DNA from: Escherichia coli
GTDB lineage: Bacteria > Pseudomonadota > Gammaproteobacteria > Enterobacterales > Enterobacteriaceae
DNA length: 64,000 nucleotides
NCBI RefSeq assembly: GCF_044324785.1
Contig: NZ_CP172127.1
Direction: 5' to 3' (one strand)
The notes below the pieces were generated by a model. That model saw nothing but the letters and a program-made list of their open reading frames with translations. It ran no database searches and was not told where the DNA came from. Positions 37,928 to 63,167 of this stretch are shown one piece after another (position 1 is the first letter of the stretch; each line of letters opens with the position of its first letter). The position numbers and the translations under genes were made by a program.

Positions 37928-38314
37928 CTATAAAGGATTATCCATCTTAAAATCGTCGATATCGCCTGTCATTTTGAATAGATTGGTGTCATTCCAACGG
38001 CACAGTTGTCTAACCCGCATTAGATTTGAGTTGGCTCTGCGGATTATTGAGAAAGCATCTTCAACAGCAGTAATCACCGATTTTTCCCAATCTTGTGCTC
38101 GGGTAAAGGTGCTTTGTGAATAGCGATAATTGCCCTCACGGGGGAGGTAATGGCTGATCACCTGGTATTTGTCAGAATTCTTTTTAGGTTTAAACTCGTT
38201 GTAAACCCAGAAAATTTCGAGTTTTTTGTTTCTTTGCCTTACACGACAACCAAAATGACCTGGGTAGCCTTCAGAGTTTTTACCTCTATGTGCAACGTTG
38301 TTCAGCCAGAACAA
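37928..38314 (-). CDS. hypothetical protein (start uncertain)
   Basis: 128-aa AT-rich ORF between the RhuM gene and an IS3-family element. Confidence 0.35.
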   Translation of the reverse strand: MFWLNNVAHRGKNSEGYPGHFGCRVRQRNKKLEIFWVYNEFKPKKNSDKYQVISHYLPREGNYRYSQSTFTRAQDWEKSVITAVEDAFSIIRRANSNLMRVRQLCRWNDTNLFKMTGDIDDFKMDNPL

Positions 38315-38403
38315 GTCTGCAATTTTTTGTGCTATGTAGAAGTAGCGGAGCTGTTCTATTTCGGTTGATTTATGGGTGTAGTGTAGATATTGCTCTGATA
38401 TGG

Positions 38404-38604
38404 TTAAGGAAAAAGCATTGCGTCGTCTTGATTAACATTTGTGCTATTGACAATAAAGGTTTCCCAAATATTAATTTGTGTTTCTAGTCCTTTAAATGAT
38501 TTTGAGAAGGCTTCTATGTACTCAGATTGCGGTTGATTTCCCCCATTTAGTGCTGCACCAAATGTAGCTATCTGTTGTTCTAAAAATGAATGATTTTTGG
38601 TCAT
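38404..38604 (-). CDS. hypothetical small protein
   Basis: 67-aa ORF from MTKNHSFLEQQ...; the longer ORF-track version runs into the IS terminal repeat. Confidence 0.3.
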   Translation of the reverse strand: MTKNHSFLEQQIATFGAALNGGNQPQSEYIEAFSKSFKGLETQINIWETFIVNSTNVNQDDAMLFP

Positions 38605-38682
38605 TACATAATCCTCTGTGTGGTTGATACTGCGTATTTTCATGAAAGGAGATCACTCAATAACCCCCCTGTGTCAGCATAG

Positions 38683-39225
38683 TTGTCGCCTCAATTTTTT
38701 AAGGAGATAACAATGCCAGGACAACCAATACCAAATGAGCTCAAAGAAAAAGGACTGATATGGCTTTTGCCACCATACTGTTGGTCACACCGTCAGATAG
38801 CCCGGAAGCTGAAGATCAGTGCCTCAGTTGTATCAAAATGGAGATGTGAGTTAGTGGAGCAAGGACTTTTACCTGAAAATGAAAAGATTACCTCCGTTGA
38901 TGTTGAAGACTGGACACCGGAGCGTCGATTCTCAGTTGTTCTTGAGACGGCTACGCTGTCAGAAATGGAACTTGCTGATTATTGCCGACGCATGGGATTG
39001 TTTGTTGAACAGGTTAAAGAATGGCGGGCTATCTCAATTCAGGCGCATGAAAAGAAATTGACGGAAAATATCCGAACAGACAGGGCATTGCGTGACGCAA
39101 AAAATAAGTTACGAGAACTGGAGAAAGAGCTTAAGCGCAAAGATAAAGCTCTGGCGGAAGCAGCTGCCCTGCTTATATTAAGGGAAAAGTTCAATGCCCT
39201 CTGGGACAACAGCGAGGAAGACTGA
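38683..39225 (+). CDS. IS3-family transposase OrfA (HTH, leucine-zipper-like C-terminus)
   Basis: 180-aa ORF with HTH and coiled-coil (LRELEKELKRKDKALAEAAALLILREKF). Confidence 0.7.
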   Translation: MSPQFFKEITMPGQPIPNELKEKGLIWLLPPYCWSHRQIARKLKISASVVSKWRCELVEQGLLPENEKITSVDVEDWTPERRFSVVLETATLSEMELADYCRRMGLFVEQVKEWRAISIQAHEKKLTENIRTDRALRDAKNKLRELEKELKRKDKALAEAAALLILREKFNALWDNSEED

Positions 39226-40252
39226 CCCCTCTCCTGGAGCGGCATAAAATTATTTCTCTTGTCCGTGAGGCCGTCGCCAACGGCGCCCGGAAAGGTCAGG
39301 CTTGTAGGTGTATCGGTATTTCTATTCGGACACTTCAGCGCTGGACTAATGGCAACATCATCACCACGGACCGAAGATCCGATACTGTAAACAGCTCTCC
39401 CCGAAATAAGCTGTCAGAAGCGGAAAGATTGCGAATACTGGAGTTGTGCAACTCTCCAGAGTTTGCATCCTTGCCTCCAAATGTGATCGTACCAACTCTG
39501 GCAGACAGAGGTATTTATATTGCTTCTGAATCAAGTTTTTATCGTGTACTGAAATCAGCCAAGCAGTTGAAGAAACGATCCCGTGAATGCCAGTATAAAC
39601 TGGCCTGATGTACTCAGGGCCGTTGCACCGAATCAAGTCTGGAGTTGGGACATCAGCTATTTGCCGTCCTGGGTCAGAGGCCAGCATTTTTACCTCTATA
39701 TGATCGTCGATATTTACAGTCGCAAAATTATTGCTGCTGAGGTATTTGCCAGCGAATCTGGAAAACATGCAGCAGAACTACTCCAGCGTGCAGTATGGAA
39801 TGAAAAATGTTCATCCAACAATCTGGTACTCCATTCTGATAACGGTGGTCCCATGCGCAGTGACACGTTGTTGGCGAAAATGTATGCGCTTGGTGTGCTA
39901 AGTTCTTATTCCCGGCCAAGAGTCAGTAATGATAATCCTTACTCAGAATCTTTGTTCCGGACTCTCAAATATTGTCCCTGGTGGCCTGAGAACGGTTTTC
40001 GCACTATTGATGATGCCAGAGTATGGGTAAACCAGTTTTGTAAACTGGTACAACTTTGAACATAAGCACAGCGGGATCAAATACGTCACGCCAGCCGAGC
40101 GTCATCAAGGTAATGATATGAAAATACTGGCGGCCAGAAAAGCAGTATACCAGCTGGCACGCGAACAGCATCCTGAACGTTGGGGAAAGCATCTACGTAA
40201 CTGGGACTACATATCAGAAGTCTACCTGAATCCAGAAAAAGAGGCTGCATAA
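39226..40252 (+). pseudogene. IS3-family transposase OrfB (DDE integrase core), at least two frameshifts
   Basis: pieces in three frames: ...RTLQRWTNG.../...PNQVWSWDISYLPSW...HSDNGGPM...YSRPRVSNDNPYSESLFRTLK.../...NFEHKHSGIKYVTPAERHQ... Confidence 0.75.
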
Positions 40253-40328
40253 CGTAATTTTATTACAAAAGGCGACAACTACCTTGAAAAACGCCGTTAT
40301 TGAGTGATCTCCTTTCATGAAAATACGC

Positions 40329-40870
40329 ACCATGACCATACCCTCTGCAACCTGACCATCGTAGTCACGCAGCGTCAGTGAACCTCCGAACAACTGTTTT
40401 ACCCGGTACATCGCTGTTTCCGCTATCGAACGACGGTTATAATCTGTTGTCCATTTACACCGGGCATTACTTCCGGTCAGCCGCTGATTAGCCACTGCAC
40501 GGTTACGGTCTTCGTATTCACCGGGCTAGTAACCCGCACCTTTTCGGGAAGGGGTAAGCGCGCTGATTTTCTTACGCCTCAGTTCATCGTGACAGAGTCG
40601 GGGGTCGTAAGCCCCGTCTACCGCTGCAGCCATGATTTTTCTGTGAGTCTGTTGGAGAAGCCCCGGGAAGGCTTCTGAGTCCGTGACGTTGTTCAGCGAC
40701 AGGTCTGCACAGACAATTTCATGTGTGTTGCCATCAACAGACAGATGCGACGCCCCTCTTTGCCGTGCTTTTTGGCTTTCCTTTCGCCTTCCCCAAAGAC
40801 TTTTAGCCCGTTGGAATCAATCACGAGGTGTATGATTTCACCCCGGGTGGGGATTTATGTATAAGAAACA
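40329..40870 (-). pseudogene. IS5-family (IS903-like) transposase fragment, truncated by the IS3-family element
   Basis: minus-strand translation contains ...NRAVANQRLTGSNARCKWTTDYNRRSIAETAMYRVKQLFGGSLTLRDYDGQVAEGMVM and upstream frameshifted pieces; ends exactly at the IS3-family element boundary. Confidence 0.6.
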
Positions 40871-40959
40871 GCGTATTCGTGAGGGGTGAGCCATGAATAA
40901 AATCCCTTTTGAAGTATTAATCCACTCTGAAAATGCATTAATCTGCGCAAAGGAAATGG

Positions 40960-41305
40960 ACGCGTTATTAATTAAGTTAATTGATATTCCGGAAAGTGGC
41001 GATAAAACATATTCGATGACGGACAGGCGACAATGTGGTTATCTGTGCTGGCGTTTGGCAGACAGGCCGAAGCACTGGCCAGACACCAGAAAGGCGAACT
41101 GGTAAGCGTGGCAGGTAACATGCAGGTCAGCCAGTGGACAGGGCAGAACGGGAAAACGCGGCAGGGACGGCAGGTTATCGCAGACAGCGTAATCAATACT
41201 CAAACGGTGCGGCCAGGAGGAAGCAGACGCGAAACCACAGGTACACAGGGTAATCAGCCACCAACGGGAGGCGACGCCACTTACGGAGATGATATACCCT
41301 TATGA
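40960..41305 (+). pseudogene. single-stranded DNA-binding protein (plasmid/island-type ssb) remnant, frameshifted
   Basis: SSB-like C-terminal part ...AFGRQAEALARHQKGELVSVAGNMQVSQWTGQNGKTRQGRQVIADSVINTQ... ending in acidic tail GDDIPL; N-terminal part out of frame. Confidence 0.55.
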
Positions 41306-41322
41306 ATTAAGCGGGGCGCAAC

Positions 41323-41643
41323 ATGAACAACAGCACACTGAAGAGCCGGACAATAAGCGACGCGACAGCGGAAGAACTCGAGAGCAGGGGACTGTGGCGA
41401 CGTGCTGCCAGAAGGTGGCAGGATGTGATGATTACTCTTGAGAAAGACAGTCACAGACAGCTTGCAGTAATGAGAGCAAGGGAATGTATCAGGAAGGCAA
41501 AACGCCCGATACCTGAAAGCCGTATTGATATTCATACAGTCAGAAAGGCCGCAGACAGGACAATACAAAAAATGGGGCTACCGTCGCTTACTGATGAAAT
41601 ATGGCGCGATTACCCTGATAGCGTTAACGATGACGGTTATTAA
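41323..41643 (+). CDS. small island-encoded regulator-like protein (possibly PerC family)
   Basis: 106-aa ORF with motif ELESRGLWRRAARRWQDVM; family assignment is from memory only. Confidence 0.35.
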   Translation: MNNSTLKSRTISDATAEELESRGLWRRAARRWQDVMITLEKDSHRQLAVMRARECIRKAKRPIPESRIDIHTVRKAADRTIQKMGLPSLTDEIWRDYPDSVNDDGY

Positions 41644-41926
41644 CTGGCGGGGGAAACACGATACCAGCGGGCGTGACTCGGGAGAATATATACCGCTGGT
41701 GGAACATTACCGGCCCTGATGGCTGGTGGCGTGCGTTACGACCTGAAAGACCATCCATGCGGGAAGGTGACACAGGAGCACCTGGCGAACGCGGGGAAGC
41801 GACTGGATGAGATTAAGAAAAAACAGCAGGAGCGCAGAAAAAGTAACCGTCTCATTAAAACGTCTTTCGCCTCCCTTTCCTGTTTCCTATGCTAATGTCC
41901 ATTTTCGCAGTAAAAGGACATTTACG

Positions 41927-42175
41927 ATGAATGCACGAAAGGCGGTACTGGCAGATAATCCGGAATTGATCCTGCGTTTGCTACAACTGAAATTTGACGA
42001 GACACTGTCGTACCCGCGCATTTCTGCACAGACCGGTGTCAGCAAAACCGCTATTTTTTCTCTGGTGAGGCGATTTCATCAGGTATTCACTGACGGGCAT
42101 CTTTCTGGTGAATATTCCTGCGTGCAACTGACCGGGCTCTTTTCCCGGGGCGATAATATTCAGCCCCGACAGTGA
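41927..42175 (+). CDS. hypothetical HTH-like protein
   Basis: 82-aa ORF from internal ATG with RBS-like AAAGGACA upstream. Confidence 0.3.
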   Translation: MNARKAVLADNPELILRLLQLKFDETLSYPRISAQTGVSKTAIFSLVRRFHQVFTDGHLSGEYSCVQLTGLFSRGDNIQPRQ

Positions 42176-42184
42176 CTCAGCCTG

Positions 42185-42440
42185 TAAAAACAGAGAAAAC
42201 CCGTCGGAACCGATTTTCACCAGAGTAAAAATGGAGACTTGTTCAGCAAACTCTTTTACCCGGAGCCTGTGTGGCCCAGATTGCACGAGAGTCTGGCATC
42301 AATGATAATGTTATTTTCAAATGGCTCAGACTCTGGCAAAACGAAGGGCGTGTTTCGCGGCGTCTTCCGGTAACAACCACTTCTGACGCAGGCGTTGAAT
42401 TATTACCTATGGAGATAACGCCGGATGAGCAGAAAGATCC
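42185..42440 (+). pseudogene. IS3-family transposase OrfA remnant (frameshifted, 3' deleted)
   Basis: pieces ...KTRRNRFSPE... and VAQIARESGINDNVIFKWLRLWQNEGR resemble IS3-family OrfA HTH regions; followed by unrelated sequence. Confidence 0.45.
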
Positions 42441-42978
42441 GATGATTCCCCTACCGCCAGCTTTTCGCCTGCGCCGGTATACGTTTCTTTATCTTTGCCC
42501 TGCATCACCCACAGGCTGGCTCCGCCGATAATGGCGTTTTGTGGTGCATCTTTCGCGTCAGCGTCGTAAGGCATCATGCCTACGCCGTAGTTGAATTTGG
42601 CGTACTCGCGAATGTTGGCAAGAGAACCGGAAGAGGCGGTGGTCATCGCGCAATCACCTCTATAGAACTTCTCGGTGGATTCATCCTTACGCCCGACGTA
42701 GATGAAGTCGCCCTTCTTGTTCATCTCCTCGAGCATGACGATGTGTTTCACCTGCTCCGGCTTGTTGAACTCCAGCACCGCGTCCGTGGCGTCAAAACCG
42801 TTGTTTTTGCTGGCAAACGGCAGACCGTTCCTGGCGCTAAAGTTTTCCAGTTGTATCCACCTCTTTGCCCATTTCCCCTTCCATAGAGTTCCAAAACGGA
42901 ATGGTCGTCACTGCCTGTGCATTGCCCATTAACGCCAGTCCGAGCACCAGTGATGAAGCTGTATAATGTAACGGTTTC
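42440..42978 (-). pseudogene. ugpB-like glycerol-3-phosphate ABC transporter substrate-binding protein remnant
   Basis: minus strand encodes [42 protein letters not shown] then frameshift joined to ...[49 protein letters not shown]...[18 protein letters not shown]; central part deleted and C-terminus truncated. Confidence 0.7.
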
Positions 42979-43735
42979 ATCGTTTATCTCTCTTGCTTGT
43001 TGTACCTGATGTGCAAATTCACTCGTTTTATGCTCGCGGGATTACATATCATGCCCGAATTGCAGAAAAATAACTTTTTATTACATGTGTAAGACAGTAA
43101 AACCTCAGAAAGATGACAGTGTGGTGCCGGCGCGGGTGAGGAAAAATGGAAGATGGGGAATGTATAAGCGGGAAAATAGGAGGGCCTGTGGATTGTAGAT
43201 AATGTGCTCATCGTTTTCATGCCGGATGAGACATAAACACTTTTATCTGAGCATTTCTATGTATTCGGACAGTTGTTCTTGGCATCCAATGGTGCAGGTT
43301 CTGTAGTGTGTGGTGGTAGCAATAGCCTCAGCTTCATTACAATATTTATTATCTCAAACATTCAAATGTCCTTGGCCCACTTTGATAGTCACTTTGTCGT
43401 GGTTATTATGTCTTTCCTTTTCCTAAAGCCCCATTATCTGTGCTGCAGCTTTCCCTCCATCAACGAACCAACAACCAGCAATGCCTGTCCCCCATAACAG
43501 CCCGGAAAATGGCACATTCTCAGATGATTTATCCCGCGAGCTATCCCGCCTACAGCTAATCGACCTGTTTAATACATCTTGACAGTCTGCTGGCAAGGTT
43601 ACCCTTCCCAATATTGTCCGTTTTTAACATATCTAATACGAGCCCCCATCAAATATGCTTCGTGTTCACTGTAAGTGACTAAAAGTGCTGTCTGCCCTGC
43701 CTCATGCAAAATATCACGAACTTCACGGCTCAGTC

Positions 43736-44237
43736 CTACCCTTGTTTTTTATCCAAGCTGGAAAATGGTTCATCTAGCAACAGGATATCTGGATTTGGAA
43801 CCAGTGACCTTGCAAGGGCAATACGTTGCTGCTGACCTCCTGAAAGTTCATGAGGATAGCTGTCTGAATAGTGGAATAAATCCACCATTTTCAACAGTTC
43901 TGTAACTCTGGTTCGCTGTACATCTCTCGGCAGTCTTCTCAGACCAAAGCCACGTTTTGTGAAACTGTAAGGTGGGGAAAGAGCGCATATTCCTGAAAGA
44001 CTATACCGACATGACATTTCTCCGGCGGAAAATGCATATCTGCGCTGGCCACACAATGCTGTGATACAAAAATTTCCCCTTGTTCAGGCGCTCAAAACCA
44101 GCTACAGCACGTAGTACTGTTGTTTTTCCACAACCTGATGTACCAAGCAGACATGCCAGTTCACCTTTACAGACTGACATACCCCCCGCCCCGCAATACA
44201 GGATATGGGCTATTGGGATAAACAACATGGACATCAT
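43736..44237 (-). pseudogene. ABC transporter ATP-binding protein remnant (frameshifted)
   Basis: Walker A GTSGCGKTT in one frame, signature LSGGQQQR and Walker B ILLLDEP in another. Confidence 0.7.
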
Positions 44238-44267
44238 TAATACATAAAGCTGTTTCTTCAGACATAA

Positions 44268-44868
44268 TCAATCCTCTGATTTCAGTCTTTCAGCTGGAAC
44301 AAACAAAATAACCGGAAATGTCCCTGCAAGAACAATCATTAAAGCAGAGATGGCCCCTTCTTCAAAAGTTCCACGGGCTGCTTCAGCATAAAGAAGTGTT
44401 ACTGGCAGTTCTTTCATCGCATCAGTGAAAACCAGCAGGGCACTGCTCACCAGAGCAACACAGGAAAGTGAACCCGAACAAAAGTTCCTGTACCATTTTC
44501 TCCCAGCAGACGTGAGGCTTGTTCCAGTGACTCTGGTATACGTCCCAGCCGGACATCAAGTGCGCCGATGGCTATTGCCTGAAATCGCATCGTACAGCAA
44601 ATCACCAACAGGACACCGACAGACATTAAAGGTAACCCCCTGTAATCCAGTAGTTCCGCCAGCCAGCGGTCATTTAGGGAGTCAGAAAACCAATCGCCAG
44701 AATCGTGCCTGGAAAGGCATAACCCAGCGACGCCACTCTCATCACACCGCGCCTGAACAGTGGCATAGCGTTGAGGAATTCCGGGCATTCCAGACTACGA
44801 GCAGACTGACAAAAATTACGACAAAGCGTTGAAGGAAGCCAGCGCGCGGACTGACAGGACTTTACCAT
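44268..44868 (-). pseudogene. ABC transporter permease remnant (frameshifted)
   Basis: three consecutive ORF pieces with permease-like hydrophobic segments split across frames. Confidence 0.55.
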
Positions 44869-44918
44869 AAAAACACAGGCTAACCGCGCCTGCGTTTTTA
44901 ATGACGGATGAAACAGAA

Positions 44919-46499
44919 TCAGGTGCCGATTATGCCGCCGTCGGCTTTTACGATAACGACAGTTGAGGAGCGCGGACGACCAGCCTTATCGCCGTCAGGC
45001 CAGCTTGATACTGCCGTCGGATGCTGCGGATCGCTAAGCCCTTCGCTTGGCTCGCCAGGGTGCTGGATGTTAATAAACAGCGTCCGGTTATCCGGAGTGA
45101 ACGCGATGCCGGTGATTTCGCAGCCGCGCGGGCCGGTCAGGAAGCGGCGGAACTCATTGGTACCGGGGATCGTCGCCACCATCTGGTTGTTGCCCATGCC
45201 TTTGTAATCTTTAATATTTATGGTTGATGACGACACGTCGGTCTGGATCCATAGCACGCCGCGGTGATCAAAGCTCAGGCCATCGGCGCTGCCGAATTCC
45301 GCACCCTTCATGCTGCCTTTGGTTTCCAGTTTGTCTGTATCGGTGCGACCGCCCATCACAAGAATATCCCAGGCAAACTGCAGCGCGGTCGGGTCACCGT
45401 TATGCTCCAACCAGTGAATGATGTGGCCGTAAACGTTTTTGGCGCGCGGGTTGGCCGCATCCACTGGCGCTTTTCCTTCCTTACCGCGATCGCTGTTGTT
45501 GGTGAGCGTGCAGTAAACGCTGCCGGCGTGATATGGATCGACCGCAATCCACTCCGGGCGGTCCATTTTAGTGGCCCCCACGGCGTCTGCCGCCAGACGG
45601 GTTTTAATCAACAGGTCGCCCTGGTTTTCAAACCCTTTACTGGCGTCGAGCCCATTTTGTCCGAACACCAGCGGTAGCCACTCGCCTTTGCCGTCGTCGT
45701 TAAATTTCGCCACGTACAGAGTGCCTTTTTCCAGCAGGTGCATGTTGGCTTTGCGATCCTGCGGGTTGAATTTTCCTTCCGAGACAAATTTATATATGTA
45801 TTCGAATTTCTGGTCATCGCCCATATAGACCACAACGCGGTTATCCGGGGCAATTGTCACCGCTGCGCCTTCGTGTTTGATGCGACCAAGCGCGGTGTGC
45901 TTGCGCGGCACTGAATGCGGATCGTATGGATCGATTTCCACCACCCAGCCGAAGCGGTTCGGCTCGTTCGGCGTGGCGTCGACGCTGAACCTTTTATCCA
46001 CTTCGTTCCAGCGGTAAGAGTCGTCGCTCCCGCTGATACCGTAACGTTTTTCCAGCGGGTTCATCTCTGCTTTTTTTACGAAAATATCGGACCAGTTCTC
46101 TTCACACGTCAGATAGGTGCCCCACGGCGTAAATCCGTTGGCACAGTTCTGCATGGTGCCGAGAATGATTTCGCCTTTCGGATCGTCAACTGTTTGCATC
46201 AGTGGGTTATGCAGCGCCGGACCGGTGATTTTCATCGGCGTGTTAACGGTGATGCGGCGTGCGAACGATGACGGGCGCACCACTTCCCAGCCCAGGGGCA
46301 CTTTTTTTACTTCAATGACCGACACGCCCATCGCGTTCTGGCCTTTAAGAGCTTTATCGGCGCTCCAGTTGGCATCGCCATCTTTAAACAGTAGACCGTT
46401 ATCGATGTATTCATGGTTTATGGCAAGCAGGCCGTGATCGGAGCTGTTCCCTGATGCGCCGCGCGATAAATGCACTCTATCTTGTGCGATAAATGGCAT
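44919..46499 (-). pseudogene. PhoX-like (DUF839) phosphatase, N-terminally truncated at the prophage junction
   Basis: 526-aa ORF lacking a signal peptide and N-terminal region; homology starts near ...GLLAINHEY...; upstream end abuts the invertase end of the prophage. Confidence 0.5.
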
Positions 46500-46529
46500 C
46501 CACGCGGCGTTTCATTATTTGAAAAAGAA

Positions 46530-47102
46530 TTACATTTCAGGTTGCGTTATGACAGTCCCAACAGGGTGGTAGCGGTAGATCGTTGACAGTCCAATATCAT
46601 AGATAATTGCCAGCCGCTTTCTGTCATACCCTTTCTGGAGCAATCTTGCGATCTGCTCATGCTGCTCCTTCGTCAGTTTCGGGCGACGTCCTCCAACTCT
46701 TCCTTGTGCTCGCGCAGCAGCCAGTCCTGCCAGCGTGCGCTCAACTATCAGTTCACGCTCCATTTCTGCCAGTGCACCCATCATATGAAAAAAGAACCTT
46801 CCCATCGGAGTGCTGGTATCGATTGAATCCGTCAGACTGCGAAAATTGACACCTTTTGCGCGTAGCTCTTCTGTGAGAGCAATGAGGTGTTTCATTCTTC
46901 TACCCAACCGATCCAGCTTCCAGACCACCAATGTATCCCCTCTTTTAAGGCACTTTAAAGCGCGTTTCAGGCCTGGTCGTTCCGACTTGGTTCCGCTCAT
47001 TTTGTCCTCAAAAATCTGTTCACATCCTGCGCACATTAATGCATTGCGTTGCAAATCTGTGTTTTGGTCATTTGTTGACACACGTATGTAGCCAATCAGC
47101 AT
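46530..47102 (-). CDS. site-specific DNA invertase (serine recombinase, Gin/Pin/Cin/Hin family)
   Basis: 190-aa product MLIGYIRVSTNDQNTDLQ... with catalytic Ser in YIRVST and C-terminal HTH; adjacent to inverted tail-fibre cassettes. Confidence 0.9.
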   Translation of the reverse strand: MLIGYIRVSTNDQNTDLQRNALMCAGCEQIFEDKMSGTKSERPGLKRALKCLKRGDTLVVWKLDRLGRRMKHLIALTEELRAKGVNFRSLTDSIDTSTPMGRFFFHMMGALAEMERELIVERTLAGLAAARAQGRVGGRRPKLTKEQHEQIARLLQKGYDRKRLAIIYDIGLSTIYRYHPVGTVITQPEM

Positions 47103-47156
47103 TAAAAATACTCCCTTTTGAGTGGTTAAAGTACTGAGATAATGTGGGGAGGATTT

Positions 47157-47182
47157 GAGAGATAAACGTTGGTTTAGGAGAA
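47157..47182. promoter_or_regulatory. candidate gix/cix-like crossover site 1
   Basis: GAGAGATAAACG-TT-GGTTTAGGAGAA; right half matches the gix half-site GGTTTTGGATAA at 10 of 12 positions; lies at the start of cassette C. Confidence 0.5.
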
Positions 47183-47686
47183 GGCTCGGCGCTACCCGTT
47201 GGTGTGCCTGTTCCGTGGCCCACCGCCACACCGCCAGCAGGCTGGTTAAAGTGCGACGGGCGCGCCTTTACAAAAGAACAATATCCTGTTCTGGCCAGAG
47301 TCTACCCGACCCTCCGTCTTCCCGATTTACGCGGTGAGTTTATCCGTGGATGGGACGACGGGCGCAAAGTTGATACAGGACGTAAGTTGCTGTCCGCACA
47401 AGGGGCAACGCTGTTAAGAACAGCAATGCTGGATTATTATAACCAGGACACTACGGGAACCTCGGGGATAGTCGGCATGGGATTCAACAATGAAGATTCC
47501 ATTACAGACCTTCGTGAGGGCAGCTTTAAAATGCCGGACGGGACAACATTCAGCGATCCTGTCGTGGCAATGTCAGACAATGGTATGCAGGCTACTATTC
47601 TGACCTCTATCAGAAGCGGGTATGCGAAGGGTATCACTGTCAGACCCCGTAGCATTGCACTTAATTACATTGTGAGGGCAGTTTAA
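47162..47686 (+). CDS. tail-fibre C-terminal (receptor-binding) cassette C, promoterless, inverted relative to the tail-fibre gene
   Basis: reading frame open from 47159 (no ATG) encoding NVGLGEGSALPVGVPVPWPTATPPAGW...RGWDDGRK...NYIVRAV, homologous to the C-terminus of the 642-aa tail fibre. Confidence 0.7.
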   Translation: MNVGLGEGSALPVGVPVPWPTATPPAGWLKCDGRAFTKEQYPVLARVYPTLRLPDLRGEFIRGWDDGRKVDTGRKLLSAQGATLLRTAMLDYYNQDTTGTSGIVGMGFNNEDSITDLREGSFKMPDGTTFSDPVVAMSDNGMQATILTSIRSGYAKGITVRPRSIALNYIVRAV

Positions 47687-48300
47687 TGAGTAACACTGCA
47701 GTTCTGGATGAAAACGGTATCGCCACTGTAGCGGGCGAGATCACTGTATATCACTATGACGAGGAAACCCGGGAATACACCTCATCCTCTGTGGAGTATC
47801 TCGCCCTTGGGGTGGGTACTCCGGCACATTCGTGCGCCGATGCACCGCCGGAGGCAATTTCGGGTTACGTGGTTTGCCGGACTGCCACGCTGAACGGGTG
47901 GGAGCATGTGCCTGATCACCGCGGCGAGACGGTATACAGCACGGAGAACGGTAACCCCGTTCTGATTACCCAACCGGGTGATTACCCGGCGGACACCACC
48001 ACAAAACAGCCGGCCACGCCATGGGATACCTGGAACGGTGAGGCGTGGGTAACCGATACTGAACGGCAGCGAGCCGCAGAACTGGAGGTTGCCAGACAGC
48101 AACGCCAGCAACGGGTGAAACAGGCGATGGCGTCCGTCGATCTTATCAACCTCAAACTGCGTGCTGGTCGCAGTCTGACACCAGAAGAAACGGCAAAACT
48201 GAACGCCGTGCTGGATTATATCGACGAGCTGAACGCACTGGATATCAGCACGGCACCTGAAATCAGCTGGCCGGAAGCGCCACTGGCACTTGCCAGCTGA
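47686..48300 (+). CDS. tail-fibre assembly protein (Tfa/U-type chaperone)
   Basis: 204-aa ORF overlapping the end of cassette C (ATGA), in the usual position of a tail-fibre chaperone. Confidence 0.7.
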   Translation: MSNTAVLDENGIATVAGEITVYHYDEETREYTSSSVEYLALGVGTPAHSCADAPPEAISGYVVCRTATLNGWEHVPDHRGETVYSTENGNPVLITQPGDYPADTTTKQPATPWDTWNGEAWVTDTERQRAAELEVARQQRQQRVKQAMASVDLINLKLRAGRSLTPEETAKLNAVLDYIDELNALDISTAPEISWPEAPLALAS

Positions 48301-48306
48301 ACGGTA

Positions 48307-48780
48307 TCACGCCGCCCTCACGATATAGTTAAACGCGATATTGCGGGGGCGGGTTATGTTAAAGAATGCTCCGTTTAATTCGGCTTTTGCGCGACTGTTT
48401 GTTCCACCCAGAATTGCGTACCACAAATAATCGCTACGGTAATTCCCCGCAAACACCTTATCGCCGCCATAGTCAATATTATTTCCGTTACTCATGTACG
48501 AGATATCCAGCGAAGAATCGTTATCGTCATGACCGCCGACCAGTGTACCTTTCTGCCATGAAAGCAACTTACGCCCCTCGTCAATCTTGCGCCCGTCGTC
48601 CCATCCACGGATAAACTCACCGCGTAAATCGGGAAGACGGAGGGTCGGGTAGACTCTGGCCAGAACAGGATATTGTTCTTTGGTGAACGTAGCTCCGTTG
48701 CACTGTAACCAGCCTGCTGGCGGTGTGGCGGTGGGCCACGGAACAGGCACACCAACAGGCAATGCAGAGCCTTCCCCCAA
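48307..48780 (-). CDS. tail-fibre C-terminal cassette B (alternative receptor-binding domain)
   Basis: 157-aa ORF (TTG start) GEGSALPVGVPVPWPTATPPAGWLQCNGATF...NYIVRAA; frame open upstream through crossover site 2. Confidence 0.65.
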   Translation of the reverse strand: MGEGSALPVGVPVPWPTATPPAGWLQCNGATFTKEQYPVLARVYPTLRLPDLRGEFIRGWDDGRKIDEGRKLLSWQKGTLVGGHDDNDSSLDISYMSNGNNIDYGGDKVFAGNYRSDYLWYAILGGTNSRAKAELNGAFFNITRPRNIAFNYIVRAA

Positions 48781-48795
48781 ACCAACGTTTTTATG
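48770..48795. promoter_or_regulatory. candidate gix/cix-like crossover site 2
   Basis: reverse complement CATAAAAACG-TT-GGTTTGGGGGAAGG, inverted relative to site 1; lies between the tail-fibre stop and cassette B. Confidence 0.5.
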
Positions 48796-50719
48796 CGGCC
48801 CTTACGATGTAATTAAACGCAACATTGCGGGGGCGCATTGATATCCATGCCCCGGTAAAATTATCCTCCGCTGTCCTTTGAATACCCGTTATAGAGTTAT
48901 CTGCTGATGCAGGAACATAATCGCTATTATTTCCTGCTTTAGGATTAGCTGGGTTTCCAACGGTTATAACAGAATCAGCAGTAGCAAAAGCGATACCTAC
49001 TTTGACATTAGTATTCAGATCGTAACCGTAATAATCCTGCAAAGCTGTACGAATAAATGTTGCAGCCTGACCACTTAGCAATGAACGCCCCGTATCAACT
49101 TTGCGCCCGTCGTCCCATCCACGGATAAACTCACCGCGCAAATCGGGAAGACGGAGGGTCGGGTAGACTCTGGCCAGAACAGGATATTGTTCTTTTGTAA
49201 AGGCGCGCCCGTCACACTTTAACCAGCCTGCTGGCGGTGTGGCGGTGGGCCATGGAACAGGCACACCAACAGGCAGTGCAGAGCCTTCCCCCAAACCAAG
49301 GTAATTGAGGACATCTTTTATACTGCCCTTAGCGATAATAGCGCGACCAATAGCTGTAAGGGTTGCCAGCGCTGCGCGGTCTGCTCCGGTAAAATAAGGC
49401 AACCGATCTGCTGCAGTGGCAAGTCCTGCCAGAGCAGTGAGCGTGGCATCTGCCGGTTGTTTTCCGTTTGCCAGATCGTATGCAGCCTTGACCGCTTTCG
49501 GTGTGGCGGCCAGTATTTCAGACGTGCTGTTGATGGCACTGCTCAATTGTATGGTGCCTTTTGCCGTCAGCGAGGCAGCAGGCACTCCCGTTATCTGACT
49601 CCACGGGTGAGTGTGGCTGACGGGCGCCTTGCCGGCTGCAAGGTCGTATGCAGCCTTGACCGCCTTCGGCGTGGCAGCCTCAGTTTCTGATTGACTGTCC
49701 GTGGCGCTGCTCAGTTGTACGGTGCCTTTTGCCGTCAGCGAGGCAGCAGGCACTCCCGTTATCTGACTCCACGGGTGAGTGTGGCTGACGGGGGCCTTGC
49801 CGGCAGCCAGGTCATATGCAGCCTTGACGGCCTTTGGTGTGGCGGCCAGCGTTTCAGAGGTGCTGTTGGTGGCACTGCTCAGTTGTACGATCCCTTTACG
49901 GGTCGTTGTTGCATCCTGGGCTGTGTATTTTCCCCGGGCCAGATCATACGCGATTTTCACAGCCTTCGGCGTGGCAGCCTCAGTTTCTGATTGACTGTCC
50001 GTGGCGCTGCTCAGTTGTACGGTGCCTTTTGCCGTCAGCGAGGCAGCAGGCACTCCCGTTATCTGACTCCACGGGTGAGTGTGGCTGACGGGGGCCTTGC
50101 CGGCAGCTAGGTCATATGCAGCCTTGACGGCCTTTGGTGTGGCGGCCAGCGTTTCAGAGGTGCTGTTGGTGGCACTGCTCAGTTGTACGATCCCTTTACG
50201 GGTCGTTGTTGCATCCTGGGCTGTGTATTTTCCCCGGGCCAGATCATACGCGATTTTCACAGCCTTCGGCGTGGCAGCCTCAGTTTCTGATTGACTGTCC
50301 GTGGCACTGCTCAGCTGTACGGTGCCTTTTGCCGTCAGCGAGGCAGCAGGCACTCCCGTTATCTGACTCCACGGGTGAGTGTGACTGACGGGTGCCTTGC
50401 CGGCTGCAAGGTCGTATGCAGCCTTGACGGCTTTTGGTGTGGCGGCCAGCGTTTCAGAGGTGCTGTTGGTGGCACTGCTCAGTTGGGTGAACCCCTTAGC
50501 TGTCAGTGTCGCGTCCGGGTGGTTACGGGAACGTACGTGTTCAGCCAGTGACTGTGCGGCTTCCTCCGTTTTTTTCTTCAGCCATTTCGTCCTGTTTGCC
50601 AGTTGCCGGGGGGCTCGATTTGATATCCCGTCAGCACCACCCAGAACCGGATCTGATGTCTCCAGTTGATAGATTTTTTCTTCCCACTTTTCTGTTTCAT
50701 TCAGGTTTCCCATAATCAA
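48791..50719 (-). CDS. phage tail fibre protein with repeat-containing shaft and C-terminal domain A
   Basis: 642-aa ORF; central about 100-aa tandem repeats (SETLAATPKAVKAAYDLAAGK...); C-terminus GLGEGSALPVGVPVPWPT...NYIVRAA. Confidence 0.85.
   Translation of the reverse strand: MIMGNLNETEKWEEKIYQLETSDPVLGGADGISNRAPRQLANRTKWLKKKTEEAAQSLAEHVRSRNHPDATLTAKGFTQLSSATNSTSETLAATPKAVKAAYDLAAGKAPVSHTHPWSQITGVPAASLTAKGTVQLSSATDSQSETEAATPKAVKIAYDLARGKYTAQDATTTRKGIVQLSSATNSTSETLAATPKAVKAAYDLAAGKAPVSHTHPWSQITGVPAASLTAKGTVQLSSATDSQSETEAATPKAVKIAYDLARGKYTAQDATTTRKGIVQLSSATNSTSETLAATPKAVKAAYDLAAGKAPVSHTHPWSQITGVPAASLTAKGTVQLSSATDSQSETEAATPKAVKAAYDLAAGKAPVSHTHPWSQITGVPAASLTAKGTIQLSSAINSTSEILAATPKAVKAAYDLANGKQPADATLTALAGLATAADRLPYFTGADRAALATLTAIGRAIIAKGSIKDVLNYLGLGEGSALPVGVPVPWPTATPPAGWLKCDGRAFTKEQYPVLARVYPTLRLPDLRGEFIRGWDDGRKVDTGRSLLSGQAATFIRTALQDYYGYDLNTNVKVGIAFATADSVITVGNPANPKAGNNSDYVPASADNSITGIQRTAEDNFTGAWISMRPRNVAFNYIVRAA
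49284..49309. promoter_or_regulatory. candidate crossover site 3 inside the tail-fibre gene
   Basis: reverse complement CTCAATTACC-TT-GGTTTGGGGGAAGG encoding NYLGLGEG at the constant/variable junction; same orientation as site 2. Confidence 0.4.
49390..50520. repeat. 300-bp tandem repeats (about 3.5 copies) inside the tail-fibre gene
   Basis: identical 71-aa and 84-aa antisense ORFs recur 300 bp apart (49779/50079 and 49834/50134); protein shows repeated ...SSATNSTSETLAATPKAVKAAYDLAAGKAPVSHTHPWSQITGVPAASLTAKGTVQLSSATDSQSETEAATPKAVK... Confidence 0.85.
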
Positions 50720-51306
50720 CTGCTCCCGTGGTTATAACTGCCATCATGGATGGCGGTATTGTTATAGCGAATGGCCACAGACTGATACTCCAGGCTGGCC
50801 AGATGGCAGCGGGCCGGTGCAAATGCAGCGAGCGTCTGACGCAGCATCGCGGCCTGATCGTTAGTAATGGGCTGTTTCAGAATAACGCGATAAACCGCCC
50901 AGGCGGCTGCATCTCCATGAACAAACAGTCCGTTATAGCTGCGATTGCCGTCGTAACTGAGACGACCTGTGCCTTCAATCAGATCCACTTCACCAAAGCC
51001 AAAACGGCGGATAACTTCCCGGATTGACCACGGCGTCCCTTTATACCGGTGTAGTTCGATGGCTGCTTTTATAAGCATGCGGCGAACATCGTCCGATTCC
51101 GCCAGCTCCCAGCCATCGCCAGACAGTGAGAACTGCTCGCCCAGCCATGGCAGCGCAGAACTGTCGACGATATCGACGAGAAAGACCATCAGTACGCTCA
51201 GGTCGATGTTATCCAGCCGCCCTGCCAGTCTTCCCAGCGTCCTGAGACTGATATCACCCTCAAGCGGTGGCGGGAGTTGTAATGGCTCAGTCATCAGACA
51301 CTCCAC
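50716..51306 (-). CDS. phage baseplate/tail protein (P2 gpI-like)
   Basis: 196-aa ORF directly upstream of the tail fibre, overlapping the J-like gene. Confidence 0.6.
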   Translation of the reverse strand: MECLMTEPLQLPPPLEGDISLRTLGRLAGRLDNIDLSVLMVFLVDIVDSSALPWLGEQFSLSGDGWELAESDDVRRMLIKAAIELHRYKGTPWSIREVIRRFGFGEVDLIEGTGRLSYDGNRSYNGLFVHGDAAAWAVYRVILKQPITNDQAAMLRQTLAAFAPARCHLASLEYQSVAIRYNNTAIHDGSYNHGSS

Positions 51307-52390
51307 TCATGTTAAGTGTGATCGCCGTACAGTTTGCCCATTCGTTTTCTGCCACCACCCTCAGTGCCGGTGTCACCAGTTCAACCTGGTACACCCCGGA
51401 AACGGACAATGCACTGATAATCTGGCTGGGGACAATATCACGCCCCAGCGTGGCGGCACGTGATGCCACCCAGTTCTGTATGGCGCTGTTAGCGGCATCT
51501 TTTACAGACCTGGCATCCTGATCACGATAGATCGTAATCCTGGCTTCAATGGTGTAATCCACCTTCACTGGTGTTTTAGCCCGCACTGTATCAGTGAGTG
51601 GCCTGACTTTCTCATCAGAGCAGAAACTCTCTACCAGCGTGAGAACACCGCCGTCCGGCAGACCGGTACTGAGCAGCGGATACAGATCTACGGTCCCGGG
51701 AACCGGGGAAAGCACAGCAACATCGACAATGTTGGGATGGGCCTGCATGGCATGAAAGCGGTATGCGCCACGGCTTCCGGCATTGGTGAATGACTCCGGG
51801 GCCAGCCTGATACGCTCCCGGAGCCTGTCATCGTCTTCCTGTTCTGAACCGCCGGAACTGGCCGTCAGATTGCTCACCAGCAGGTCGACGTTATCAATCT
51901 CATCGAGTAACTGACTGACCTGCGCAGGTTGCCAGCCGTTACCAGCGGTACCGGGTTCGGTACAGGTGGACGTGACATTGACCAGCAGCAATCCGGCCTT
52001 CAGTACCACATCTGTATCGGTGGCAAAAATAACGCTGTCGGAAGCGCTGACGCGGGTGCCTGCCGGGATCAGCACATCAATGGTCAGTGCCTCATCCACA
52101 GAGAACTGAAGTGTGGTGGTGGCAGGCTGCGCGGCAAGGCGGTATACACCAACCAGTTCTCCGAGGTAATCAATCATCGGCTCTCGTGAAAAGGCGACCA
52201 GATTCTGCTTTGCTGCCTCCTGTACCGCAACCCTGACCAGCATTTCGCGATAGGCCCACAGATCAATCAGCAGACGTTCTGCCTGTGCCGGGTACAGCGT
52301 TTTGCCGGTATCCGCTTCATACTTCGCAATCATTTCTGCCGTGATTTTGTCGGCATCGCGTTCAATAAAATCGGGTTCTGTCAGCGCCAT
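51287..52390 (-). CDS. phage baseplate J-like protein
   Basis: 367-aa ORF in the conserved V-W-J-I-H order. Confidence 0.7.
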   Translation of the reverse strand: MALTEPDFIERDADKITAEMIAKYEADTGKTLYPAQAERLLIDLWAYREMLVRVAVQEAAKQNLVAFSREPMIDYLGELVGVYRLAAQPATTTLQFSVDEALTIDVLIPAGTRVSASDSVIFATDTDVVLKAGLLLVNVTSTCTEPGTAGNGWQPAQVSQLLDEIDNVDLLVSNLTASSGGSEQEDDDRLRERIRLAPESFTNAGSRGAYRFHAMQAHPNIVDVAVLSPVPGTVDLYPLLSTGLPDGGVLTLVESFCSDEKVRPLTDTVRAKTPVKVDYTIEARITIYRDQDARSVKDAANSAIQNWVASRAATLGRDIVPSQIISALSVSGVYQVELVTPALRVVAENEWANCTAITLNMSGVSDD

Positions 52391-52728
52391 AGCAACTCCT
52401 GAGTCCGGGTCTGTCCGTCTGAGCCTTTCCAGCTCACCCGGAGCGTAAGATGTTCGCCGTCGACGGCGGGTTTAACTGACATAAGCTGGCAGCGGGGCTC
52501 CCAGCGTCGGATGGCATCGACGGATTCGCGCACCACATGCGGAATGGCCCGGTCTACAGGCCAGTCGATATAAAGATGCAGATTGCTGCCGAACTCCGGG
52601 CGATGCGGGTCGCTGCCGCGGGGAGTCCGCAGGATAATTTGAATCGCCTGCCGGATATCATCCAGCCCCCGGACAATTTCGCCGGGAGCCTGCAGGGTCG
52701 GTTGCCAGAATACTGAGGTTGTTTTCAT
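52381..52728 (-). CDS. phage baseplate wedge protein (GPW/gp25 family)
   Basis: 115-aa ORF overlapping the J-like gene. Confidence 0.7.
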   Translation of the reverse strand: MKTTSVFWQPTLQAPGEIVRGLDDIRQAIQIILRTPRGSDPHRPEFGSNLHLYIDWPVDRAIPHVVRESVDAIRRWEPRCQLMSVKPAVDGEHLTLRVSWKGSDGQTRTQELLWR

Positions 52729-52782
52729 GGGGGCAGTATTGCCCCCGTGCGGGAACGCTGATATTAAAGGCGTTTAAAAAGC

Positions 52783-53379
52783 TCAGTGGGAGTGGTGGCT
52801 GGAGTTTTCGCCATCAGACAACATACTGCCCGTGGCATGGGCATTCCCTTTAATCTCGATATTGCCATGGATGGTCGCGGTAACACCTTCACCACCAGAA
52901 CCCGCCATGCCTCCTTCGTAAATCAGCTTACCCCTGACACGCAGATCTCCGGTAAGTTCGGTTTCCGGTGCGTCAATCGTGGCTTTCTGTGTTTTCAATA
53001 CCACATCAGCACCACACTCAATGACAATATGCTCAATGCCGCCCCGGATGATCAGAGTGTGCGTCTTCCGGTTGTAGCTGTACTCTGCACCATCAGCAAA
53101 CCGGGTTCCCCGGATATTTTTGTCACTGAACGGTGGTTTATCGACGTCTGAATACACCGCGCCCAGAATAACACCATCCTCGCCGTTGGCATCGAGCAGC
53201 ACCTCAACCTGCTCCCCCACGTCAGGGAGCCAGTAATCTTTGTTATCCTGGGTATTGCGCTGCAGCACGTTAAGCCAGTTTGTGCGCAGGTTATCGCATT
53301 CAGGCAGACGAACGCGGGCCTGAACCCTGTCGGCATCAACGGCACTGACCGTACCGACCTGACGAGTGACACCAGTCAT
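52783..53379 (-). CDS. phage baseplate assembly protein V (spike)
   Basis: 198-aa ORF with OB-fold-like N-terminus and glycine-rich C-terminus. Confidence 0.65.
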   Translation of the reverse strand: MTGVTRQVGTVSAVDADRVQARVRLPECDNLRTNWLNVLQRNTQDNKDYWLPDVGEQVEVLLDANGEDGVILGAVYSDVDKPPFSDKNIRGTRFADGAEYSYNRKTHTLIIRGGIEHIVIECGADVVLKTQKATIDAPETELTGDLRVRGKLIYEGGMAGSGGEGVTATIHGNIEIKGNAHATGSMLSDGENSSHHSH

Positions 53380-54548
53380 TTTTTCTTCTCTCTTATTACT
53401 GTGGACGTGCTGCCGTCCGGTTTATAGATGGTCAGCATCCGGGTTTTGCCGATTTTTTTACCTTTCTTCGCCTTGCCCTGTGTGATCGGCCCCCGTGCCA
53501 CTTCCAGCTCTGTGGTGTAGCCGCTGTTACGGTCAAACGCATGGCGGGCAGTGGTTATGAGCCATGGCCCGGATAACTGCCCAAAACCCACCAGTTCAAT
53601 TTTGTTGCCTGCTGTCAGTTGAGGTGTTCCCGTCAGCGTCAGGGAGCCGTTCTGCTGGTATTCGTTATGTCTGGCCAGTGCTGAATCCGCTTTAATCCGG
53701 GCACTGTCCGGGTCGCTGACGCGGCTGTTAACTTTAAGTGAGTCAGCGCTGGTAACCTTACCACCTTTGAGCTTTTTGTCGCTTTCACGGGTACCACCAT
53801 CAGCTTCGTAGACGATCAGTTTTTTACTGCTGCTTTTCTGGTGTTTTACCTTTGCAGATTTATAGACCCGGTTGATGGTGTCACGCAGGGAAAAGCGGGC
53901 CACATCCTGCGGTTTTAACTGCCTGACCGGCTCCTGACTGCGCAGTGTGGCCAGATGAGAAAAAATCAGCTGGTCACTGACCACTTTCACTGCATAACCA
54001 TACTCGCTGGCCAGCCGGCGCAGAAAACCCACGTCGGTTTCAGCATACTGGGTCACCCGGTCGATTCTGATGGACTCAATGCTGCCCACCAGTTTCAGCC
54101 GGTGCTTTCTGGCAATCCGCCCCGCAACAGCTGCCAGCGTGGTGTTCTCAAAACCACGACTGGTTTTAGTCCGCAGGGCACTGTTAACCGAGGTGGCCAC
54201 CCCACGGATAGAAACAACGGAAGCGGGCGAACTCACTTCGATCTCGTCTATAGAGAACGTACCGCAGGACAGCAGCTTCTCGTCCTGATAGCCCATTTTC
54301 AGCGTCAGCGTGTCACCCTTGCCCGGATACCACTTATCCAGCCAGCGGCCATCGGTGTCGTCCAGCTCCACCTCAATGGTATCGGACTCATTTTTGATGT
54401 TATCGCTCCAGGTCACACGGGTGACATAAGGCGCGATATCAGAGGTGATGTTTTTCTGCAGATACCACAGAGTGAACACCGGTGTCAGCACATCGCTGAC
54501 GCCGGTTAACGCTGATGTGACTTGCGCAGTGCTGTTTATCTCAGCCAT
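53376..54548 (-). CDS. phage tail protein (P2 gpD / Mu P-like, late control D family)
   Basis: 390-aa ORF between the X/U-like and V-like genes. Confidence 0.65.
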   Translation of the reverse strand: MAEINSTAQVTSALTGVSDVLTPVFTLWYLQKNITSDIAPYVTRVTWSDNIKNESDTIEVELDDTDGRWLDKWYPGKGDTLTLKMGYQDEKLLSCGTFSIDEIEVSSPASVVSIRGVATSVNSALRTKTSRGFENTTLAAVAGRIARKHRLKLVGSIESIRIDRVTQYAETDVGFLRRLASEYGYAVKVVSDQLIFSHLATLRSQEPVRQLKPQDVARFSLRDTINRVYKSAKVKHQKSSSKKLIVYEADGGTRESDKKLKGGKVTSADSLKVNSRVSDPDSARIKADSALARHNEYQQNGSLTLTGTPQLTAGNKIELVGFGQLSGPWLITTARHAFDRNSGYTTELEVARGPITQGKAKKGKKIGKTRMLTIYKPDGSTSTVIREKKK

Positions 54549-54751
54549 GGGGCAATATCCTCTTCTGTACGGGCTTCTTCAGCCTCAATCACCGGGATCA
54601 GTAACAACAGCCCGGAGGGCAGCACCGGCGTGATGGCCACGTGCGGATTGGCGGCAATAATCCGGGGATAGCCCAGCGGGTCACCGTAGTACTGCCATGC
54701 CAGCGAATCCCAGCGCTCTCCGTCACGGGTAACATGTTCAAGAAACATCAC
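54536..54751 (-). CDS. phage tail protein X-like (small LysM-like tail protein)
   Basis: 71-aa ORF overlapping neighbours in the tail operon. Confidence 0.55.
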   Translation of the reverse strand: MMFLEHVTRDGERWDSLAWQYYGDPLGYPRIIAANPHVAITPVLPSGLLLLIPVIEAEEARTEEDIAPWLR

Positions 54752-58844: not shown

Positions 58845-58919
58845 AGTGGTTAACCTCCGGGGAAGGTGAAAAGACGTGAGGGGATAACGCAGAACAGCCG
58901 CTACTGGCGGCTGTCTGTA

Positions 58920-59177
58920 CTATGATTTGTCGCCGTACTCGCTTTTGATTTGCTCTTCAGCCTGCTCCAGCCACATCTCCAGATCGTCAGTATCGAGGGC
59001 ATCAATCTCCCCCGGCTGAAACCGGAACCATCTCGCCAGCAGCCCCTGCGCCTGCGTCAGCGCCCTGGTTGCTCTCACCCATCCCCGTGATGAGCTGAAA
59101 TCGTTTCTGTAACTGCAGGTAATCAGCCAGATCCATATTGTCGAGATCTTCCGGGAGAAGACCAGTACTGCGGGCAA
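58920..59177 (-). CDS. tail assembly chaperone frameshift extension (GT/E'-like), probable programmed frameshift product
   Basis: 85-aa ORF overlapping the 3' part of the 111-aa chaperone ORF in another frame. Confidence 0.4.
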   Translation of the reverse strand: MPAVLVFSRKISTIWIWLITCSYRNDFSSSRGWVRATRALTQAQGLLARWFRFQPGEIDALDTDDLEMWLEQAEEQIKSEYGDKS

Positions 59178-59337
59178 TCAGCGGTTCGTCCCAGTCTGCC
59201 GGGTTTTTGCTGATTTTGCGCACCTGCTTCAGGTCTTTTACCGTCAGGCGTTTCAGTTCAACCAGCTCAATTCTGGTGCCTGCAGCAGTGGTGAAGGGAT
59301 AAGACAATTTAAAAGTATCGGATGGGGTCTGTGACAT
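59002..59337 (-). CDS. tail assembly chaperone (G/E-like)
   Basis: 111-aa acidic ORF immediately upstream of the tape measure gene. Confidence 0.55.
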   Translation of the reverse strand: MSQTPSDTFKLSYPFTTAAGTRIELVELKRLTVKDLKQVRKISKNPADWDEPLIARSTGLLPEDLDNMDLADYLQLQKRFQLITGMGESNQGADAGAGAAGEMVPVSAGGD

Positions 59338-59716: not shown

Positions 59717-59718
59717 CG

Positions 59719-62818: not shown

Positions 62819-62819
62819 G

Positions 62820-63158: not shown

Positions 63159-63167
63159 AACGCCTCC

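Follow-up and report, generated by a model that had tools for sequence, protein, structure and literature searches.

A probable relic of a phage-inducible chromosomal island, with an intact perC-family gene, in the pheV pathogenicity island of Escherichia coli

A damaged gene for a single-stranded DNA-binding protein (ssb), followed by a small open gene resembling a regulator and flanked by insertion sequence (IS) debris, raises two questions: from what kind of element does the pair descend, and is the surviving gene kept as a regulator? The locus lies in a pheV pathogenicity island of E. coli (tRNA-Phe at 15328), which was analyzed as a stretch of 64,000 nucleotides (the window, to which coordinates refer unless another locus is named). 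The segment from about 40872 to 41840 is very probably a relic, ~1 kb in length, of a phage satellite of the type called phage-inducible chromosomal island (PICI); its perC-family gene is most likely a passenger and not a maintained regulator. The relic and its flanks consist of the following features:

40277..40851, minus strand: left flank, an internally truncated remnant of an IS903B-like (IS5 family) transposase
40872..41019, plus strand: fragment of a PICI early operon, with the end of an Icd-like gene and the first ~37-42 codons of a small ORF that precedes DUF4222
41015..41019, no strand: deletion junction 1, with GATGA microhomology
41015..41305, plus strand: 3' fragment of a PICI-type ssb gene, codons 41-136 of 136
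41323..41643, plus strand: intact perC-family gene, 106 aa, PchE-like (Pfam PF06069)
41644..41706, plus strand: DNA leading from perC to proQ/finO, up to deletion junction 2 at 41706
41706..41840, plus strand: internal proQ/finO fragment, approximately codons 123-163 of 194
41843..42470, plus strand: right flank, a decayed IS66-family element whose left inverted repeat (GTAACCGTCTC...) lies inside proQ/finO

PICI-like chromosomal elements in many E. coli match the ssb part together with the upstream piece 40893-41002 at lower identity. The gene order in the intact relatives is int-alpA-icd-DUF4222-primase-hyp-ssb-perC-proQ/finO, followed by terS or by capsid genes, and the variants among them carry a primase or a DUF927/RepA helicase, PerC and/or ProQ/FinO, and a terS or a capsid module. 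This order is the published architecture of Gram-negative PICIs and of their capsid-forming variants. In intact E. coli PICIs, the hyp-ssb-perC-proQ/finO module sits between the replication and packaging modules, and the relic is collinear with this module at 82-93% nucleotide identity (loci L006, L012 and L016). The parent element is, on this sequence comparison, a PICI that once sat in, or recombined into, the pheV pathogenicity island. An earlier note on this DNA had seen here the remains of an older integrative element embedded in the island, and to that extent it was right.

The closest intact relatives are of two kinds. L016 (strain Br_112_kylling, NZ_CP182371) is an intact PICI located between cspD/yljB and clpS, with the order int-alpA(HTH)-Icd-hyp-DUF4222-primase-hyp-ssb-PerC(106 aa)-ProQ/FinO(194 aa)-terS. 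L012 (IMG/VR UViG 2579778622_000006) reads int...DUF4222-AAA_25-hyp-ssb-PerC-ProQ-capsid E-decoration D. Both have the ssb-perC(106 aa)-proQ/finO order in common with the window, at 88-93% nucleotide identity and 87% identity of the PerC protein. They differ in being complete (int, alpA, Icd, DUF4222, primase or helicase, and terS or capsid genes), whereas the window retains about 1 kb with two deletions and IS flanks. Three further loci (L006, L014 and L015) are OI-51-type and capsid-forming PICIs in which ssb is followed by PerC; L014 and L015 represent O-island 51 / CP-933C of O157:H7, between roxA and phoQ. Among the nine intact satellites inspected, seven have perC directly after ssb or after proQ. 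An intrinsic terminator follows pchE in L014 and proQ in L016, and these positions are consistent with a hyp-ssb-perC(-proQ) transcription unit in the intact relatives. As a separate observation, a full-length ProQ/FinO-domain protein (178-226 aa) is encoded beside perC in L016 (11413-11997), L012 (10305-10985) and L005 (10340-10876), and the PICI proQ/finO genes stand just upstream of terS or capsid genes; no paper was found that treats a PICI-borne FinO-domain RNA chaperone.

The relic bears four lesions: two internal deletions, the insertion of an IS66-family element, and the loss of its left side at an IS903-like junction. Its leftmost DNA, 40872-41019, is 82% identical to L006 6039-6187 and 85% identical to L004 8001-8110. 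The protein (MNKIPFEVLIHSENALI...) encoded by the small ORF within it can be aligned with its homologues in L006 and L004 as far as residue ~40 (79% over 42 aa by tblastn). Junction 1 was placed from two alignments to L006, of which the first runs to 6187 and the second begins at 9001; in window coordinates they share 5 nt. The ~2.8 kb of PICI DNA lost there comprises the rest of the small ORF, DUF4222, the primase gene, the primase-hyp intergenic region, the hyp gene and ssb codons 1-40. A microhomology deletion of ~2.8 kb joined the start of the small early-operon ORF to ssb codon 41. That ORF starts at 40893, crosses the junction into ssb out of frame and stops at 41105, so that an unrelated upstream ORF reading over the junction creates the appearance of a frameshift. 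The frameshift in ssb that had been described earlier is therefore not real; the gene instead lacks its first 40 codons.

The surviving part of ssb is 86% identical in nucleotide sequence to L006 ssb and 88% identical to the L016 and L012 genes. In the 90-aa ORF 41033..41305 (plus strand), the match to Pfam SSB PF00436 is restricted to profile positions 49-101 of 104 (E 5e-9), and the TIGR00621 score of the fragment (43.8) is below the cutoff of 53.95. Compared to the 136-aa relatives, the N-terminal part (residues 1-40) is missing and a complete OB fold is not present. The acidic C-terminal tip reads DDIPL, ending in L where 6 of 6 intact PICI relatives have a terminal F, and an R occupies a position at which five of the six have W and one has Y. 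These changes at conserved positions fit relaxed constraint. PGAP calls the fragment an intact CDS of 98 aa (WP_050554504.1), starting at 41009 with a non-canonical ATA start, but it is really truncated.

To the right of junction 1, window positions 41015-41706 correspond to L016 10705-11395 at 88% identity, an interval that covers ssb codons 41-136 and the whole of perC. The alignment then resumes at L016 11768-11903 for window positions 41706-41840 (93% nucleotide identity to both L016 and L012), so 372 bp is gone from inside proQ/finO at 41706, which takes away the greater part of that gene. The remaining proQ/finO fragment matches only positions 70-108 of 109 of the Pfam ProQ profile PF04352 (E 2e-6; tblastn 88% over 41 aa). 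The intact L012 and L016 proteins, by comparison, match over the whole domain: that of L012 spans ProQ profile positions 8-107 of 109, and that of L016 is recognized by the ProQ and FinO models of NCBIfam. With the 372-bp internal deletion and the 3' cut by IS66, a complete FinO domain is not present in the window. The 58-aa ProQ/FinO CDS that PGAP calls intact (41719..41895, WP_000907124.1), an ORF that the earlier note had passed over, is a truncated remnant whose 3' end is IS66 sequence.

The order of two of the lesions can be read from a metagenome contig, L021 (ENA ERZ1756011 NODE_18387, 1-1670), which is 98.9% identical to window 41086-41840. It has the identical 372-bp proQ/finO deletion, no IS66, and terS downstream. 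Because the deletion occurs in this IS66-free, terS-bearing DNA, it must be older than the IS66 insertion. The contig also suggests a PICI lineage that is possibly still mobile and in which the FinO-domain gene is naturally truncated.

IS debris borders the relic on both sides, as the earlier note had stated in describing the element as interrupted by IS insertions, and the description applies fully to the right side only. There, PICI homology stops at 41840 and the left inverted repeat of the IS66-family element (GTAACCGTC...) starts at 41843; hundreds of plasmid and chromosomal IS66 copies align from query positions 974-984, that is, window 41833-41843. This is a true insertion, although the element has itself decayed, with a frameshifted tnpA (a PGAP pseudogene) and a cut-off downstream end. 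On the left, blastn similarity to IS903B/IS5-family copies, which are found on thousands of plasmids, ends at window 40851. In this IS903B-like remnant, the transposase has lost its N-terminal part and the inverted repeat that should face the relic is gone; the PGAP annotation is of an IS5-family pseudogene, frameshifted and without N-terminus. Because the element is internally truncated at 40851, the left boundary arose by deletion or recombination instead of by insertion of an IS.

Nothing else of the parent element could be located. When all PICI proteins were used as tblastn queries, no further PICI gene was found in the 64-kb window. The integrase and AlpA searches recovered only the unrelated pheV island integrase, at 23-26% identity, and no alpA; the primase gave no match, its replication module having gone with the ~2.8-kb deletion; and no PICI-attributable terS, capsid, portal or terL was matched. 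Since its own integrase and AlpA are missing, the feature is a relic and not a PICI. With no int, alpA, primase, ori, terS or capsid genes left in the window, it can neither be induced nor replicate nor be packaged. An Rfam scan of 38000-44000 at E <= 1 gave no RNA family.

The relic is neither unique to this genome nor unannotated. The 1341 bp from 40860 to 42200 recur at 99.9-100% identity in 49 of 5,426 complete E. coli genomes, mostly chicken and human isolates, where PGAP labels the genes single-stranded DNA-binding protein, PerC family transcriptional regulator, ProQ/FINO family protein and IS66 TnpA. Strains that bear the relic include 702/18 (NZ_CP074701), SFE8 (NZ_CP051219) and APEC PK8275. 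The perC allele is found in 51 complete E. coli genomes, in 49 of them within the relic and in the other two, one of which is L016, at 90% identity. A one-genome-per-species contig scan with the PerC protein returned no match, and the homologues collected in the PerC protein search were mostly fragments and mis-assembled copies of the relic locus. On a larger scale, a decayed 6.1-kb block, 40296-46451, is 99.97% identical to L001 19437-25592 and contains the IS903 remnant, the PICI relic, the IS66 remnant, ABC-transporter pseudogenes and phoX. It occurs in two contexts, the pheV island (the window and L007) and an integrase-bearing island adjoining ynjA (L001), both of which carry iha and the ICE remnants TIGR03756/TIGR03757.

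The only complete gene in the relic is the perC-family gene, whose product is closest to PchE. The 106-aa protein matches Pfam PerC PF06069 with an E value of 5.9e-28 (97.4 bits against a cutoff of 22.6), over protein residues 11-99 and profile positions 2-89 of 90, and phrog_994 with an E value of 3.6e-28. It contains GLWRRAARRW, which corresponds to the family core G-(L/F)-(W/Y)-R-R-A-A-x-R-W. Four residues (R26, R27, A28 and W32) are invariant in 67 family representatives and six more (A16, L19, E20, G23, C55 and G85) are conserved in at least 90% of them; the window protein keeps every one. The AlphaFold model (mean pLDDT 84.9) is all-helical, with four helices, and the protein is accordingly predicted to have the family's character: small (~80-105 aa class), helical, and with no canonical HTH domain. 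Amino acid identity is 87% to L016/L012 PerC, 50% to PchE of OI-51 and 37% to PchD. The gene differs from the L016 allele by 25 nt and 14 aa, with a dN/dS of 0.38. The suggestion that the ORF is intact and PerC-like was thus confirmed, and the similarity to Pch proteins was found as well.

PerC homologues are common accessory genes of PICIs (PMC6092414, PMC11773190), and the nearest described system is OI-51 of O157:H7. This element carries a single-stranded DNA-binding protein and PchE; it was once described as P4-like (PMC3378721) and was later named PICI EcCIEDL933 (PMC6092414). PchE from OI-51/CP-933C, a group 3 PerC homologue by the grouping of later papers that cite Porter et al. 2005, is 50% identical over 90 residues to the window protein and has in common with it PF06069, the length class and a C-terminal ...DEIWR(D/N)YPD motif. 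The pchE gene is directly downstream of a 136-aa PICI-type ssb (PMC3378721), and the window perC likewise follows ssb. On the other hand, the N terminus of the window protein is extended by 9 residues and its acidic tail is longer, and OI-51 has no proQ/finO after pchE, whereas the intact relatives of the window allele have proQ/finO after perC. The window element also differs from OI-51 as a relic does, without int, alpA, primase and packaging genes and with the promoter region of the hyp-ssb-pchE type deleted. The literature already describes PerC homologues among the accessory genes of PICIs, and it also describes the ssb-pchE order of OI-51.

Other members of the family are more remote. 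EPEC PerC (from the pEAF plasmid) and EHEC PchA/B/C (group 1), which activate LEE1/ler, resemble the window protein in PF06069, in the conserved G(L/F)(W/Y)RRAA-RW core and in being small and helical. Their kinship with it is presumably distant, and other plasmid-borne members of the family reach about 30-38% identity to it. EcCIMP1_025 of PICI EcCIMP1 is a PerC-like product of a PICI accessory gene, as in the parent type of the window element (PMC11773190). It is reported to repress LEE1-lux in Citrobacter rodentium and has been proposed to be ANR-like, and it resides in an inducible, mobilisable PICI, not a relic (PMC11773190). A kinship with pchD of the iha/tellurite island SpLE1 was considered and dropped, given the ibrA-ibrB neighbour of pchD and the identity of just 37%. 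In O157:H7 Sakai, pchD (L019 24878-25147) comes right after ibrA-ibrB and before a 214-aa ORF, near a partial IS1203 and IS66, and, unlike pchE and the window perC, it has no ssb neighbour. The ORF downstream of pchD, ECs1389, gave no blastp match to the L016 ProQ/FinO protein.

The activities reported for this family vary. Group 1 Pch activates LEE1 by relieving silencing by H-NS/StpA/Hha/YdgT, a process in which the nucleoprotein complex is altered (PMC4764244). LEE is not activated by PchD or PchE, and over-expression of PchE represses csgD and curli and induces flagella (PMC6265319, PMC7369912). Expression of flhDC and of adhesins also changes when PchE is over-expressed. Group 2/3 proteins and the PICI homologues from EDL933 and CFT073 did not activate LEE1 (PMC11773190, citing Porter 2005; PMC6265319), and regulatory activity differs among the PerC/Pch groups (PMC6265319, PMC7369912, PMC11773190). 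PerC/Pch proteins appear to be small helical regulators lacking any classical fold for DNA binding. If it is made, the relic PerC, itself small and helical, would presumably modulate silencing complexes of the H-NS type and so act on horizontally acquired genes that H-NS silences; the anti-H-NS mechanism was demonstrated for group 1 Pch and not for PchE-like proteins.

Is the relic gene expressed? The pchE transcript of O157:H7 is polycistronic, and its start has been placed 10 nt ahead of ECs1586, the hyp gene preceding ssb (PMC7369912). The region homologous to this mapped promoter falls within the ~2.8-kb deletion of the relic, and the AlpA-dependent early promoter is likewise missing. With the promoter region for a transcript of the hyp-ssb-pchE type deleted, the relic perC is most likely silent or expressed only through read-through. 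An IS3-family element upstream (38.7-40.3 kb, plus strand) could be the source of read-through transcription into perC. The GGAG-like Shine-Dalgarno sequence of L016 reads GGCG in the relic. A scan of 40500-42000 for sigma-70-like promoters found no site, but in L014 (8200-10250) the scanner likewise reported nothing at the promoter region mapped for pchE (PMC7369912); its negatives on satellite operons are hence not proof that a promoter is absent.

Against descent from a satellite stands the proposal of the earlier note that the ssb is of a plasmid or island type, the latter read here as ICE-type, and that the two genes were carried as cargo by an integrative element resembling CP4-57, which is very improbable. 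In its favour, the ICE remnants TIGR03756/TIGR03757 and a mobI gene lie elsewhere in the pheV island, and PICIs and CP4-type elements do have a P4-like int/alpA backbone in common (PMC3378721). However, all collinear relatives are PICIs with primase and terS or capsid genes, and PICI integrases share only 23-26% identity with that of the pheV island (see above). A plasmid source was discarded when megablast of the 1341-bp query against 72,556 plasmids matched the IS66 part only; protein searches of plasmids gave distant PerC homologues, the best of which (H143) is a mis-binned chromosomal OI-51-type PICI. As for CP4-57 of E. coli K-12, a P4-like element with int and alpA and with abpAB, rnlAB and yfjP-Z as cargo, it has no ssb, perC or proQ/finO homologue (tblastn) and no nucleotide similarity to the relic (blastn). 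Its int and alpA are 20% and 37% identical in amino acid sequence to those of L016, and these are genes that the relic lacks. The label CP4-like therefore fits only loosely, in that OI-51 was itself once called P4-like, and the specific likeness to CP4-57 fell away. That the ORFs are chance frames in IS-flanked junk can hardly be entertained: the region is short and surrounded by pseudogenes, which is all that speaks for it, and against it stand the Pfam E values of 6e-28 (PerC), 5e-9 (SSB) and 2e-6 (ProQ) and the 88-93% nucleotide collinearity with intact elements.

A weightier alternative to the passenger gene concerns its present role. The perC gene might be a domesticated, functional regulator of host or island genes, for instance those for adhesins, motility or curli in the manner of PchE, transcribed from an upstream IS-derived or read-through promoter; this is possible, yet on balance unlikely. 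Its ORF is intact while its ssb and proQ neighbours are destroyed, all family-invariant residues are kept, the AlphaFold model is confident, dN/dS against the intact-PICI allele is 0.38, and the gene is identical or nearly so in 49 genomes and at two island locations, a pattern that may be compatible with retained function; PchE-type proteins, moreover, show regulatory effects when expressed (PMC6265319, PMC7369912). Other points speak against it. The 6.1-kb block as a whole is nearly identical between genomes, so conservation of perC carries no signal and has no power to show selection either way, and the dN/dS value mostly mirrors evolution inside functional PICIs. The chance survival of a 321-bp ORF in a 1-kb relic is unremarkable. 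To this must be added the deletion of the region homologous to the mapped pchE promoter, the altered Shine-Dalgarno sequence, and the little effect of a pchE deletion in O157:H7 (PMC7369912). A more elaborate version holds that the ExPEC/APEC pheV and ynjA islands kept perC as a PchE-like regulator, which, expressed by IS read-through, would tune H-NS-silenced adhesin, motility and biofilm genes (for example, those of the nearby iha island), and that PerC and the FinO-domain protein of PICIs may serve the satellite life cycle and not only act as 'virulence' cargo. This we regard as distinctly improbable. If it were true, the two PICI proteins could have a role such as counter-silencing or RNA control of the packaging operon, a hint of which is the recurrent hyp-ssb-perC(-proQ/finO) unit upstream of the packaging genes.

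Taken as a passenger in a PICI relic, the feature is real, explained and ordinary: it is PICI debris of an already described kind that is already annotated in RefSeq. Its interest lies in assigning the fragments to a phage satellite instead of plasmid, ICE or CP4-57 cargo, in recognizing two CDSs called intact by PGAP (the 98-aa SSB and the 58-aa ProQ/FinO) as truncated fragments, and in adding one more case of PICI debris in ExPEC/APEC pathogenicity islands. Were the orphan perC shown to be expressed, it would illustrate, in a modest way, how a satellite's regulator can be domesticated.

The right-hand part of the window has a different history. Identity to related genomes ends at 46451, and at the junction 46451/46452 one end of a Mu-like transposable prophage (window 46452-64000) is inserted into phoX, where the ORF is 526 aa long versus 659. 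The Mu-like DNA opens with TGATGCGCCGCGCGATAAATG and repeated GCGATAAATG motifs, after which come genes for a Gin/Hin-type invertase, tail-fibre assembly, tail-fibre, baseplate J, GPD, tape measure, sheath and Mu Gp36 proteins.
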